From positions 1 to 51,998 of the forward strand of contig JAZDOJ010000033.1 of assembly GCA_043798795.1 (NCBI GenBank): 51,998 bases of DNA, given 5' to 3'. The notes under the pieces are model-generated. The model did no database searches. It saw nothing but the letters and a program-made list of their open reading frames with translations, and was not told the origin of the DNA. Within the stretch, counting starts at the first letter, position 1. The number at the start of each line of letters is the position of its first letter. Origin of the DNA: Candidatus Omnitrophota bacterium (GTDB taxonomy: Bacteria > Omnitrophota > Gorgyraeia > Gygaellales > Profunditerraquicolaceae). Position numbers and translations under genes: made by a program. This document shows positions 11,380 through 15,722 of this stretch, in pieces.

Positions 11380-11389
11380 TGAGGAATCC

Positions 11390-11493
11390 CTTGACACGAA
11401 ATCGACGACAGATAAAAGGAAGCATTTCGTGTCAAGTAAATTCGCACATAAACTTACTCACACTGTCGTGTTCGTAAGTTTAGTGCTCATTTA
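11390..11493. repeat. Double-hairpin element A1 abutting the rpsG ATG
   Basis: Hairpin 1 CTTGACACGAAAT (11390-11402)/ATTTCGTGTCAAG (11424-11436); hairpin 2 spans 11437-11493; near-identical to A2 and A3. Confidence 0.92.
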
Positions 11494-11964
11494 ATGAGAA
11501 GAAGAAAAGCACAGGAAAAAGTCGTATTGCCTGATCCGAAATTCAACAGTGTAATCGTGGCCAAGTTTATCAATATGGTGATGCTGGAAGGCAAGAAGGC
11601 CATCGCCGAAAGGATGGTTTACGGCGCCCTCGAATTAGTCAAGAAACAGCTTAACGAAGTTGACGTGCAGAAGGTCTTTCATAAAGCCCTGGAAAATGCA
11701 AGGCCTCGGCTTGAAGTGAAACCCCGGCGCGTGGGAGGGGCGACCTATCAGGTCCCCATTGAAGTGCGCCAGGAACGGGGAACGTCCATTGCCTTGCGCT
11801 GGATCAGGGACTTTGCCAAAAATAAAAAGGGCCGTTCCATGAAGGAAAAACTTGCAGAGGAGATCATCGCCGCCTATAAAGGGGAAGGATCGACTATTAA
11901 GAAAAGAGACGATACGCATAAAATGGCGGAGTCCAATAAGGCCTTCGCGCATTTTAGATGGTAG
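11494..11964 (+). CDS. rpsG: 30S ribosomal protein S7
   Basis: [26 protein letters not shown]. Confidence 0.99.
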
Positions 11965-11965
11965 G

Positions 11966-14065
11966 ATGAACAGAAAAATACCACTAGACAAAATCAGGAA
12001 TATCGGAATCATCGCGCATATCGATGCCGGCAAGACCACCACCACCGAGCGCGTGCTTTTTTACACGGGCCGGACGTATAAGATCGGCGAAGTGGATGAG
12101 GGGACGGCCACGATGGACTGGATGGTCCAGGAGCAGGAGAGGGGGATTACCATCACCGCGGCCTGCACCACCTGCCAGTGGCACGATTTCAGCATAAATA
12201 TTATCGATACGCCAGGGCACGTGGATTTTACCATTGAGGTGGAAAGGTCCCTGAAGGTCTTAGACGGAGCGGTCGTCGTCTTTTGCGGAGTCGGAGGGGT
12301 GGAGCCGCAGTCAGAAACTGTCTGGCGTCAGGCAGACCGCTACGGGGTTCCCCGCATCGCCTTTGTGAATAAAATGGATAGAACCGGTGCCAATTTGTCG
12401 GATACCATTATCCAGATGCATAAGAAATTAGGAGCGAATGCCGCGGCGATCCAGTTGCCTTTTTTTCAGAATGATAAATTAGAAGGCATCATCGACCTCG
12501 TGGAGGAAAAATTGATTGTCTATAAAGACGAGGCGGGCGTGGAGAGGCAAGTTTTAAAAACTCCCGATGACTTAAAGACAGTTGTCCATCACGAGCGCGA
12601 CAGGCTCATGGAGAAAATCGCTGAAGTGGATGAGTTGATTATGGATGCTTTTGTGCATGCCAAGAAAATAGAGGTGGCGGATATCAAGGCTGCCATTCGG
12701 CGAACCGTGCTCCAGAATAAATTCGTGCCTGTTTTGTGCGGAGCGTCTCTTAAGAATAAAGGGATTCAGCTTTTGCTGGATGCGATCTGCGATTATTTGC
12801 CTTCACCGCATGACGTGCCTCCCATCAAGGGGACGAATCCTGATACTGGCGAATTTGAGGAGATCCAGGCCCAGGATAAGGCCCCGTTTTCTGCCCTTTG
12901 TTTTAAAGTAACGACAGATCCTTACGTGGGAAGGCTCAATTATGTCCGTGTTTATTCAGGCACCATAAAGAGCGGAGATTTTGTCTGGAATGCCTCCAAG
13001 AGAGTCAAAGAGCGCGTGAGCAAATTGCTGAGGATGCATGCCAACCGGCAGGAAGCGATCGAAAGTGTGCATACGGGAAATATCGCGGCTGTCGTGGGCC
13101 TCAAAGAAACCAAGACAGGGGATACGTTATGCACCCAAAACACTCCTATATTAATAGAGTCCATCCGATTTCCGGAGCCGGTCATCCAGCAGGCCATTGA
13201 ACCAAAATCCAAACAGGACCAGGAGCGCTTAGGCATGTCTTTACATAAATTAGCAGAGGAGGATCCTTCTTTTCGGGTCACCTATAATCATGAAACAGGA
13301 GAAACGATCATATCGGGCATGGGGCAGTTGCATCTGGAGGTAGCTATCGACAGGATTTTAAGGGAGTTTAATGTTGAGGCGCAGGTTGGTTCTCCTCAGG
13401 TGGCTTATCGGGAGACCATCACCAAGAAGGTGGTGGCTACGGGAAAATTTATCCAGCAAAGCGGCGGGCATGGTCAATACGGCCACGTCGTTTTAGAGAT
13501 GCAGCCTCAGGAAATGCCGGGATTAGGCATTACTTTCGAAGAGAAGATAAAAAGCGGAGCCATCCCCCGCGAATTCATTTCATCTGTAGAGGATGGAGTG
13601 CTGGGAGCTGCTAAGAGCGGCTGTCTCGTGGGGTATCCGGTGACGGACGTCAAGGTGGTCTTGACAGACGGTTCCTACCACGAGGTGGATTCATCCGAAA
13701 TGAGTTTTCAGATGGCTGCTGCGATAGCTTTCAACGAAGGATTAAAAAAAGCAGGCTCCATATTGCTTGAGCCGATTATGGATATTGAGGTGATCGTGCC
13801 GGAAGAGTACATGGGCACGGTGATTGGTGACTTGAATGCCAGGCGCGCCAAAATCGTTTCCCTCGCCCAGCGGGGCAATGTCCGCGTCATCCGCGCTTAC
13901 GTTGCGTTAGGCGAGATGTTTAATTATGCAACGGCTTCAAGATCCTTGACCCAAGGACGCGCATCCTATACAATGGAGCCCTCGTTTTACGCCGAGGTGC
14001 CTTCACATATAGCAGAAAAAATCATCGGAGGTTTTTCCACAGCAGGCACAAGGAAAACTTTTTGA
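11966..14065 (+). CDS. fusA: Elongation factor G (start corrected to ATG 11966)
   Basis: [34 protein letters not shown]; the track start at 11852 overlaps rpsG. Confidence 0.98.
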
Positions 14066-14095
14066 GTGAGGGTTTAAAGATGAAGGAGGTTTTAC

Positions 14096-15301
14096 ATGGC
14101 TAAAGAGAAATTTGTTAGGTCAAAACCGCATGTGAACATCGGCACGATTGGCCACATCGACCACGGTAAGACGCTTCTGACGACTTGCATCACCCACGTG
14201 CTCGCCAAATTAGGCAAGGCCCAGGCGCGGGAATACGCGGATATCGCCAAGGGCGGTACCGTCAGAGACGAGACCAAGGTCGTTACCATATCGGTCGCCC
14301 ATGTCGAATACGAATCCGACGCGCGCCACTATGCGCACATCGACTGTCCGGGACATGCGGACTATATCAAAAACATGATCACCGGTGCGGCCCAGATGGA
14401 TGGCGCGATCTTGGTGGTTTCTGCCGCAGACGGACCCATGCCTCAGACAAGAGAGCATATCCTCCTGGCTCGGCAAGTCAACGTTCCCTCGATGGTCGTC
14501 TTCTTGAACAAGATCGACGTGGTTTCAGACAAGGAATTGATTGACCTCGTTGAGATGGAAGTCAGGGACCTGTTAACAAAATACGGTTTTCCCGGAGACA
14601 AGACCCCCATCATCAAGGGGAGCGCTTTGAAAGCCATGCAGGCCGGTGGGGATCCCAATAATGAGGATTGTAAACCCATTCTGGAACTCATAAAGGCCTG
14701 TGACGAGTTTATCCCCCTTCCGGTCCGAGATATGGACAAGCCTTTCCTTATGGCCGTGGAAGATGTTTTCAGCATCGAAGGCCGGGGTACCGTCGGAACC
14801 GGCAGGATCGAGCGCGGAAAAGTAAAAATCGGCGAAGAGGTGGAGTTGGTGGGATTGAGGCCCGAGACCAAGAAGACCGTCGTGACCGGAATTGAAATGT
14901 TCCGCAAGCTTCTGGATGAAGGCCATGCCGGAGACAACGTCGGGTTGCTTTTGAGGGGCGTTGATAAGAATCAGATCGAGCGCGGTATGGTTATCGCCGC
15001 ACCCAAATCCATTACGCCTCATACCAAGTTTAAAACCCAGGTTTACATCCTGACCAAAGAAGAGGGCGGAAGGCACACGCCTTTCTTCAAGGGTTATCGG
15101 CCGCAATTCTATTTCCGCACCACGGACGTTACGGGAAGCGTGACTTTGCCTGAGGGGGTGGAAATGGTGATGCCCGGAGATAACGTGAACCTGGAAGTTG
15201 AATTGATTATACCTATCGCGATGGAAAAGGAATCACGTTTTGCCATACGCGAAGGCGGGCATACCGTCGGGGCTGGTGTGGTTACGGAGGTTATAGCGTA
15301 G
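14096..15301 (+). CDS. tuf: Elongation factor Tu with non-canonical switch I
   Basis: [45 protein letters not shown]. Confidence 0.99.
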
Positions 15302-15313
15302 TAAGAGGAGTTA

Positions 15314-15422
15314 TATCCTTGACACGAAACCGACGATAGGTAAACGGAACCTTACGTGTCAAGGATAAATTCGCACATAAACTTACTCACACTGTCGTGT
15401 TCGTAAGCTTAGTGCTCATTTA
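15314..15422. repeat. Double-hairpin element A2 abutting the rpsJ ATG
   Basis: 13-bp stem TATCCTTGACACG (15314-15326)/CGTGTCAAGGATA (15355-15367); hairpin 2 spans 15366-15422. Confidence 0.92.
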
Positions 15423-15722
15423 ATGCAAAAAATTAGAATCAAATTAAAAGCCTACGACCATCGCCTTTTGGATCAGGCGGTCGAAGAAATCGTTGAGACG
15501 GCGCGGCGCACAGGGGCACGCATTTGCGGGCCGGTCCCTCTTCCTACAAAAAGGGAAGTTTACACGGTCTTGCGCTCTCCGGTGATTGATAAGAAGTCAC
15601 GGGAGCAGTTTGAGCTGTCCACGCACAAACGCCTCATCGATATCTTAGAGCCGACCTCCAAGACGATTGATTCTTTGAGAAAACTGAATCTACCCGCAGG
15701 GGTAGATGCTGAAATTAAGTGA
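15423..15722 (+). CDS. rpsJ: 30S ribosomal protein S10
   Basis: [37 protein letters not shown]. Confidence 0.99.

Follow-up and report, generated by a model that had tools for sequence, protein, structure and literature searches.

ERIC/IRU elements of enterobacteria, in particular the intercistronic ones of Yersinia, are imperfect palindromes of about 100-130 bp that give long RNA stem-loops, lie between operon genes near stop codons, are co-transcribed, have TA termini and exert orientation-dependent effects on neighbouring mRNAs, as described in the available parts of the reports (PMC2229807, PMC10969869). The Correia/NEMIS elements of Neisseria are about 100-155 bp long, have inverted-repeat ends, and occur in many gene-adjacent, co-transcribed copies whose hairpin is a substrate of RNase III, according to the accessible portions of two reports (PMC2649163, PMC10969869). 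In REP/BIME and REPIN-RAYT systems, short palindromic units with strict Watson-Crick stems are found as singlets and as inverted doublets. Here we describe a repeat for which these three, ERIC, Correia and REP, appear by analogy to be the closest known elements in kind. It was found in a 51,998-nt contig (the window, meaning this whole stretch) of a 1.22-Mb, 68-contig assembly of a Candidatus Omnitrophota bacterium (own genome, G000), where it fills gaps between ribosomal protein and elongation factor genes.

Direct reading of the sequence revealed that the 114-nt gap between rpsL and rpsG and the 121-nt gap between tuf and rpsJ are both filled by a repeated two-hairpin element of about 107 nt, which stops 2 nt short of the ATG of rpsG (11494) and of rpsJ (15423). 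A third, longer copy occupies the entire rpsJ-rplC gap (15723-15926, 204 nt). The rpsG and rpsJ copies were 91% identical, and identities among the three copies were 91-92%. The reading that we favor, at slightly better than even confidence, is that the element belongs to a dispersed palindromic family resembling MITEs (miniature inverted-repeat transposable elements) and REPs, that the genes flush with it are translated independently of a Shine-Dalgarno (SD) sequence, and that the GAGG at its upstream end is a terminal motif of the repeat and not a working distant SD. As is the case for MITEs, the element was found to be small (107-260 nt, thus below 300 bp), non-coding, dispersed in many copies, bounded by terminal inverted repeats, and present or absent at orthologous sites.

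The basic unit was a palindromic hairpin of about 60 nt, (GGAT)aARTT-CG-GSSC-ana-AACTTAY-loop-RTAAGTT-tnG-GSSC-TC-AYTTa, which ends in CTCAYT. A full element consists of one inverted unit (A), a variable hairpin (B) and a second unit (C). Since unit A is inverted relative to unit C, the ends of the element read TAA(G/A)TGAGG... and ...CCTCAYTTA, and full copies carry terminal inverted repeats, TAA(G/A)TGAGG being the reverse complement of CCTCAYTTA. RNAalifold analysis of 15 units of the own genome gave 16 pairs, 8 of them with compensatory changes, and the stem extended into the AYTTA before the ATG. Among 136 distinct units from 100 loci, 97.5% of the cells held standard pairs, compared with 80.9% in shuffled and 25-46% in slid controls, the first figure leaning towards structure because the alignment had been built on the model and the loci picked by pattern; double changes were seen in 12 of the 16 stem pairs. 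The minimum free energy (MFE) was -38.7 kcal/mol for the rpsG copy (z -4.3 versus shuffles), -41.1 kcal/mol for the rpsJ copy (z -5.0) and -102.7 kcal/mol for the rplC copy (15705-15945, z -9.95). In the unit C hairpin the stable core ended at -8, and the foot below it was made of five A-U pairs and one U.C/C.U internal loop. The features of the window are listed below, with bit scores for R1, the covariance model of the unit.

11008..11379, plus strand: rpsL (S12), from the open reading frame (ORF) list and the translation tail ...SKYGAKRPK; it ends KRPK-TAA and its stop abuts the element.
11377..11387, plus strand: TAATGAGGAAT, the rpsL stop plus the SD-like GAGGA (11381-11385), matching the 5' terminal motif of the repeat, TAA(G/A)TGAGG.
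11384..11443, plus strand: the variable middle hairpin, B, of copy 1 (GAAU..CCCUUGACACG...CGUGUCAAG..AUUC), from the MFE fold and the alignment of copies.
11434..11494, plus strand: hairpin unit C of copy 1, the conserved unit of about 60 nt, from R1 (75.3 bits) and the fold.
11494..11964, plus strand: rpsG (S7), starting MRRRKAQ, with no SD in the 20 nt upstream; its orthologues begin at the same residues.
15299..15313, plus strand: tuf stop TAG followed by TAAGAGGAGTTA with the SD-like AGAGGAG (15304-15310), from the sequence and the alignment with the rplC composite.
15308..15372, plus strand: hairpin B of copy 2, from the MFE fold; in its extension, GAGUU from the SD-like run is paired to AAUUC.
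15363..15423, plus strand: hairpin unit C of copy 2, from R1 (76.6 bits) and the fold; CTCATT at 15415-15420, ATG at 15423.
15423..15722, plus strand: rpsJ (S10), with its TGA stop (15720-15722) within the 5' terminus, AAGTGAGGCC, of the next copy.
15715..15820, minus strand: unit A of copy 3, an inverted unit with a two-hairpin insert of about 45 nt in its loop, from R1 (50.9 bits) and the fold.
15817..15871, plus strand: hairpin B of copy 3, from the alignment and the fold.
15865..15925, plus strand: hairpin unit C of copy 3, from R1 (78.8 bits); CTCATT at 15917-15922, rplC ATG at 15927.
436..495, minus strand: solitary unit between tRNA-Thr (192-264) and tRNA-Trp (541-612), from R1 (69.9 bits).

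The rplC copy is a complete A+B+C element. Those of rpsG and rpsJ comprise B+C; ahead of them stand TAATGAGGAAT and TAAGAGGAGTTATA, respectively, which look like the 5' terminus of the element after loss of hairpin A. For the motif at 11377-11387, the same terminus, TAA/GTGAGG, was found on composites of four relatives (G001, G002, G015 and G028), and the AGAGGAG stretch at 15304-15310 resembles a degenerate 5' terminus (TAAG..AGG then AGTTATATCC, cf. GAACTTATCC). In copy 1, unit C has its stable core at 11444-11486 and its terminal CTCATT at 11486-11491, the last base of the R1 match being the A of the rpsG ATG. A compensatory A>C / T>G change (CCTTGCCACG...CGTGGCAAGG) sets hairpin B of copy 3 apart from those of copies 1 and 2. 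The conserved loop insert of about 45 nt defines a sub-type of inverted unit (GGAGC..CCGGCTTTATCGGATCAGCCGG..TGCCGCTTCTGCGGCA) with two extra hairpins, which occurs in more than one genus and was found in the window (15715-15820, minus strand), at C15:4316-4419 of the own genome, in the rpsL-rpsG spacer of G001 (L209) and in the rpsJ-rplC spacer of G011 (L065). Besides inverted pairs, short direct tandem arrays of units with near-identical spacers were noticed (C33:180-267 and 362-449 of the own genome; L142, with three units about 127 nt apart; L099). The 3' end of rpsL (11360-11379, TATGGAGCGAAGAGGCCGAAATAA) matches the loop start of unit A (TATGGAGC) and its inner end (GGCCGAAnTnA). Assignment of GGCCGAAATAA at the rpsL end to unit A was rejected, as it is native S12 coding sequence (SKYGAKRPK*) that occurs in element-free relatives too; the resemblance may be either a coincidence, as which it is treated here, or a microhomology favouring insertion at that junction.

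The covariance model R1 gave 29 matches in the own genome at E<=1, 24 of them at E<=3e-4, corresponding to about 24-27 units. In the set of relatives, 31 of 41 genomes (own genome counted), from several families of one order, were matched, with up to 72 matches per genome and none in the other 10. In a sample of 151 genomes drawn evenly from the phylum Omnitrophota, with 35 candidates scored per genome, R1 matched 95 genomes and 70 of 112 genera. A pattern scan with one genome per species matched at least 117 stretches, and among the matches listed (80) almost all were titled Omnitrophota/Omnitrophica or 'uncultured Planctomycetia' metagenome-assembled genomes (MAGs). We take the repeat family to be specific to Candidatus Omnitrophota. 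A phage origin was rejected, the pattern giving 0 matches in viral contigs. No Rfam family matched the element at the gathering threshold (best E=1.4), and searches of the literature on Omnitrophota intergenic palindromes and SD use turned up no description of it; as judged from Rfam and these searches, it is a previously undescribed family of palindromic intercistronic repeats. The genes downstream of units in the own genome are diverse housekeeping genes (CDP-alcohol phosphatidyltransferase, radical SAM, SurA-like, OmpH), and therefore the element is not a gene-specific regulator. An autoregulatory leader of ribosomal proteins was likewise rejected, there being no match to an Rfam leader and the unit also preceding unrelated genes.

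To define the position of the units, 146 loci (29 from relatives, 117 from the pattern scan) were searched by nhmmer with a unit profile, which gave 175 units in 143 loci; 143 units were evaluable and 32 were excluded (flank too short or end not recognisable). A start codon lay within 60 nt after CTCAYT in 84 of the 143, and the distances were bimodal. The start was at 1-8 nt in 34 units (30 with ATG), 31 of which had no SD core in the gap, the other 3 being probably mis-called SD cases. It was at 10-20 nt in 43 units, 37 with an SD core that in 31 of these began 0-3 nt after CTCAYT, and beyond 20 nt in 7 units. A converging ORF was faced by 27 units, with the stop codon inside the terminus (TAA or TGA of TAAGTGAG) in 24 and directly abutting it in 2, while 32 of the 143 had neither a start nor a converging stop. 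Units with no inverted partner faced a start in 59 cases and a stop in 16, several of the latter visibly being mis-calls of SD+ATG. At two loci (L038, L094) the entire spacer is one unit, TAA/ATTCG...CTCATT/t(a)ATG, and units also adjoin tRNA genes. The positional rule is strict: stop codon, then element, then SD or ATG.

This register with the SD, the start-facing bias of unpartnered units, the phylum-wide conservation of unit sequence and the proximity to tRNA genes would all fit a domesticated intercistronic RNA module, an alternative to which we give a probability well below even. The module would be a processing or stability cassette, with a host RNase (III, E or Y) cleaving the B helix or the unit ends. 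Its parts are offered as tentatively as the whole: the B helix, of about 20 bp with a GAAnTTATCC/GGATnAATTC extension, might be the site of cutting and unit A a 3' protective hairpin on the upstream mRNA, and unit C could, with similar reserve, be a 5'-proximal hairpin before the SD/AUG acting as a 5' stabiliser or as an insulator of the ribosome-binding site (RBS). Consistent with it, at a site where G001 (of the same genus as G000) carries a composite, an orthologous hairpin with a diverged interior has been kept by G000, its position and the SD that follows being unchanged, and the available parts of two reports offer precedents, RNase III cutting Correia and ERIC exposing an RNase E site in an orientation-dependent way (PMC10969869, PMC2229807). 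However, the excess of G.U over A.C that would be produced by an RNA-only constraint is not seen, some sites show decay of copies through internal deletion, and most relatives are without the element at these junctions. Furthermore, so little native spacer exists in these compact genomes that a tolerated insertion has no place but near the SD or ATG, which by itself would put insertions next to the SD.

The arrangement at the stop codon bears on three further explanations. A stop overlapping or abutting the terminus in 26 of the 27 stop-facing units, with a start or SD 0-4 nt from the other end and with units flanking tRNA genes, could mean that the whole element is excised from the RNA at both CTCAYT/ARTGAG ends, leaving mRNAs leaderless or SD-initial, in the way that tRNAs punctuate mitochondrial transcripts. 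We regard this as highly improbable, given that no ribozyme or other Rfam match was found and that the balance of G.U and A.C points to a constraint at the DNA level. The same contacts with the stop might instead reflect translational coupling bridged by the hairpin, the folded element joining the upstream stop to the AUG for SD-less re-initiation, like ribosome shunting or bypassing. In keeping with it, in the unit-only spacers (L038, L094) the TTA that immediately precedes the ATG is paired to the TAA of the stop, the MFE fold of the rpsG copy pairs AAUGA at the rpsL stop with UCAUU before the AUG, and empty sites of relatives are TAATG or ATGA overlaps, as in classically coupled genes. Nevertheless, the closing helix is missing from the centroid fold of the rpsG copy and from the rpsJ and rplC copies, many units precede genes with a strong SD of their own, some have no detected upstream ORF, and we know of no bacterial experimental precedent for re-initiation across 110-260 structured nt, so that such coupling seems unlikely to us. 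We also consider rather unlikely a selected, phylum-wide 'gene punctuation' hairpin, serving either as an SD-less ribosome shunt via pairing of the stop region with the pre-AUG bases or as a mark at which polycistronic RNA would be cut into leaderless or SD-initial mRNAs, with mobility spreading the signal to operons.

The original prediction had placed the SD sequences of rpsG and rpsJ upstream of the element and offered three options for translation: that the hairpins bring these sequences to the AUG, that the element is removed at the RNA level, or that initiation is independent of an SD. The observations behind it hold: the 20 nt upstream of both genes read ...GTTTAGTGCTCATTTA, with no GGAG, GAGG or AGGA, both ATGs are preceded by ...GTAAG(T/C)TTAGTGCTCATTTA, and GAGGA (11381-11385) and AGAGGAG (15304-15310) lie just 5' of the element. 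The 4-5 unpaired nt that it counted between SD and AUG were only roughly right, the count here being 7 nt (UCAUUUA) from the end of the second hairpin's stable part to the AUG; the SD-like run is, however, partly paired (GAGUU/AAUUC in rpsJ; AAUGA/UCAUU in rpsG, in the MFE fold only). In such a split RBS, GAGGA and AGAGGAG would be the working SD and the two hairpins would fold out to set the distance. Runs 3-4 nt before both copies, the approximately 7 unpaired nt left to the AUG when the hairpins are stacked, a similar SD (AAGAGGAAT) at the empty rpsG sites of two relatives (G009, G018) and a canonical CCUCC tail in the 16S rRNAs of two relatives are compatible with this. On the other hand, the run matches the terminal motif of the repeat, it is partly paired in the folds, 17 of the 18 short rpsJ spacers of relatives have no SD core, and no such run is present at the rpsJ copy of G001, at the rpsG copy of G002 or at >=9 of 12 (that is, at least nine) other flush copies lacking unit A and having a detectable upstream stop. 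We therefore consider a split RBS very unlikely, and recruitment of a distant SD by the hairpins found no support as a general mechanism; the upstream GAGG is best read, from comparison of the copies, as the terminal motif of the repeat. Phage T4 genes 38 and 25 are the known case in which a small hairpin bridges a distant SD to the AUG. The present loci resemble them in having a hairpin between an SD-like run and the AUG, but differ in that the structure spans 100-200 nt and the SD-like run is a part of the repeat, not conserved among copies and partly paired.

Among the ways out that had been offered for these genes, initiation independent of an SD proved the best supported. A crude SD core (4-mer, -18 to -4) preceded 34% of 1058 crudely called ORF starts genome-wide, against 15% in a control window. 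Within the operons of the window, a clear SD was found before rplL, tuf, rplP, rpsS, rpsK, rpsD and rpoA, and none before rplD, rpoB, rpoC, rplB and nusG. Thus a missing SD is ordinary in this genome, and what is unusual is the stable hairpin flush with the AUG. It was also noticed that tuf (14096) has a strong SD (GAAGGAGGTTTTACATG), and that fusA apparently starts at ATG 11967, 2 nt past the rpsG stop, with only TAGGATG before it; therefore SD-led and SD-less genes alternate within one operon. Loss of the anti-SD was not supported, as two relatives keep the canonical CCUCC tail (GGAUCACCUCCUUUCU at the 16S 3' end), the own 16S being cut by the contig end. One RNA run (word share 0.05) gave coverage of fusA and tuf in their conserved parts alone, with a trace in one bin at the rpsL end and none on the elements; one of its contigs ceased to match at the tuf stop codon. 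From the sequence, the most likely course for genes behind flush copies is SD-less initiation, for which the A/U-rich and weakly paired hairpin foot would be the site.

The junctions were then compared in 29 relatives. A search for empty sites among orthologous spacers had been proposed beforehand, and such junctions were indeed found, in accordance with the expectation that the arrangement is insertion-like: the element behaves as inserted or replaceable, and orthologous junctions are mostly small and element-free. Between tuf and rpsJ, the spacer was <=25 nt in 18 of the 29 (e.g., taaAGAAAatg, taaAAAatg, taaCAatg) and only 1 of these 18 had an SD core, and therefore rpsJ is normally without an SD in this order. 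The only relative with a B+C element there was G001, in which it is preceded by TAACAAGAGTG (just AAGAG), not a good SD. Between rpsJ and rplC, full composites starting TAA/GTGAGG and finishing CTCAT/TAA..atg were found in two relatives of the same family (G002, G015) and in one of another family (G028), and G011 had unit A alone, the element being missing in all other relatives, G001 included. Between rpsL and rpsG, G001 carries a full composite of 257 nt starting TAA/GTGAGGAC, and G002 carries B+C without an upstream GAGG; 5 of the 29 have a TAATG or ATGA overlap, and most others have short spacers, many with an SD. The empty site of G009 reads taaAAGAGGAATAATAACTAatg (TAAAAGAGGAAT...ATG), its spacer SD (AAGAGGAAT) being shared with G018. 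Therefore, the GAGGAAT before the own rpsG could be an ancestral SD, a possibility that applies to rpsG only.

Presence and absence differed between G000 and G001 at the C17 site and at rpsJ-rplC, and most of the 29 relatives were element-free at the three junctions. At the C17 site, G000 has B+C flush with the ATG and the upstream stop inside AAGTGAC, whereas in G001 the site is empty: a spacer of 14 nt (ATAGGATAAAGCTT) contains an AGGA of its own and leads to a TTG start. Compared with it, the element-bearing G000 allele has lost the SD. At the C23 site G001 retains only the termini and a piece of B, a degenerate remnant, and at the C68 site both genomes have the element with unrelated B hairpins. 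The long B type of G001, specific to that genome, recurs at no fewer than four (>=4) of its loci, and the B type of G000 is common to its three ribosomal-gene copies. These patterns suggest that the family spreads or is homogenised within genomes and decays by deletion. Other, unrelated repetitive or hairpin fillers of 60-150 nt, including GTAACTAGTAA repeats, CCGCAAAC repeats and GGATAAAA repeats, were noticed at the same junctions in several relatives (L054, L058, L063, L217, L220, L225, L226, L227), so that repeats of various kinds seem, in this order, to land generally in these spacers of the ribosomal operons.

Where the constraint is on RNA only, G.U is as a rule much better tolerated than A.C. 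In 16 pairs of 137 aligned units (about 2160 cells), 16 G.U pairs and 14 A.C mismatches were counted, each below 1%, and start-facing units alone gave 3 and 2, although these counts are small and come from a sample selected for conservation. As G.U was as rare as A.C, the data favour a constraint acting on the DNA palindrome or on both strands. TAA or TA flanks are frequent around the elements, and start-facing ends are mostly followed by AA. Among the 150 best R1 hits, inspected by eye and not systematically, inverted unit pairs were about 100-200 nt apart and none enclosed a gene. A promoter role, with TTGACA in B and TAAGTT as -10, was rejected because the -10 is without its final T, the loop is not of constant length and TTGACA is missing from other copies; a promoter scan gave no plus-strand site in the elements and site counts at chance level. 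A terminator was rejected as well, no T-run following the units, and so was a self-cleaving ribozyme or intron of a known family, for which no Rfam match was obtained.

Y1 (HUH) transposase genes were present in 31 of the 41 genomes, most of them RAYT-like (NF047646, 79-81 bits, cut-off 80) and some belonging to IS200/IS605 with TnpB. A REP-RAYT link was not supported, since the Y1 genes examined are not flanked by units and their presence does not clearly track the repeat among these partly incomplete genomes. Two genomes of 1.8-2.5 Mb, G014 and G030, had unusually many RAYT-like Y1 genes (8 and 12, respectively), and those examined were not unit-flanked.

Several observations weigh against a MITE/REP-like family with SD-independent flush genes. 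No enzyme mobilising the repeat was identified: in the 41 genomes, which are partly incomplete, Y1 genes and the repeat occurred together in 25, the repeat only in 6, Y1 only in 6 and neither in 4, and for 0 of 8 Y1 transposase genes examined did a unit lie closer than 1.5 kb. Target-site duplications in clean form were not found, and the one clear pair of filled and empty sites (C17) looks like a replacement of the spacer and not a simple insertion. Conservation of the unit across the phylum is unusual for a purely selfish MITE, and this, like the 59:16 bias of unpartnered units towards starts, suggests a host function. With a stable hairpin flush with the AUG, initiation on essential, highly expressed genes would ordinarily be expected to suffer. 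In addition, the survey loci came from a pattern derived from the own genome, with 200-nt flanks and crude ORF calls (>=45 open codons). Taken together, phylum-wide conservation, orientation bias, the fixed register with SD or ATG and the presence in essential operons leave real room for a host function; coupling of genes across the hairpin is one candidate, and a role as a 5' hairpin or as a processing cassette is another.

On the MITE/REP-like reading, the repeat would behave as a non-autonomous mobile or recombining palindrome of the MITE/REP/ERIC/Correia kind. It would occupy or replace the tiny stop-to-start gaps inside operons, where it would necessarily be co-transcribed, leaving its outer hairpin directly 5' of the SD or start codon of the next gene. 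Where it is flush with the ATG (rpsG, rpsJ, rplC), the gene would be translated without an SD, as seems to be the case for the majority of genes in this genome. The AUG could open together with the approximately 7 A/U-rich nt before it, the stable stem staying at about -8 and beyond; this opening is expected because the foot of the hairpin consists only of five A-U pairs and an internal loop.

The Omnitrophota repeat differs from the described families in several respects. Unlike ERIC, it is built of two inverted 60-nt units with a variable middle hairpin, its units also occur alone, its end keeps a fixed register with the next SD or ATG, and its range is a phylum and not one family. Correia termini create promoters and bind IHF, whereas the Omnitrophota elements have no plus-strand promoter-like site and showed no clean TA duplication. 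REPs typically lie after genes and are not flush against start codons. The Omnitrophota genomes do contain RAYT-like genes, as in REP systems, but the unit is longer (about 60 nt versus 20-40 nt), no RAYT gene examined was unit-flanked (0/8), and no clear co-tracking was seen.

Omnitrophota have small genomes, are uncultivated and have hardly been studied by molecular biology. A repeat present in roughly two-thirds of the sampled genomes of the phylum is now defined, with a covariance model, an anatomy and a positional rule. Such repeats will confuse the prediction of gene starts and can pass for regulatory leaders, and they are likely break points in the assembly of Omnitrophota MAGs. If the repeat is merely tolerated, a structured insert of 100-200 nt can take the place of the spacer and SD even in ribosomal protein genes that are essential and highly expressed, which, if true, bears on how initiation without an SD works in bacteria other than the model organisms. 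If the cell makes use of it, operon expression would have a cis-element of a new and general kind.

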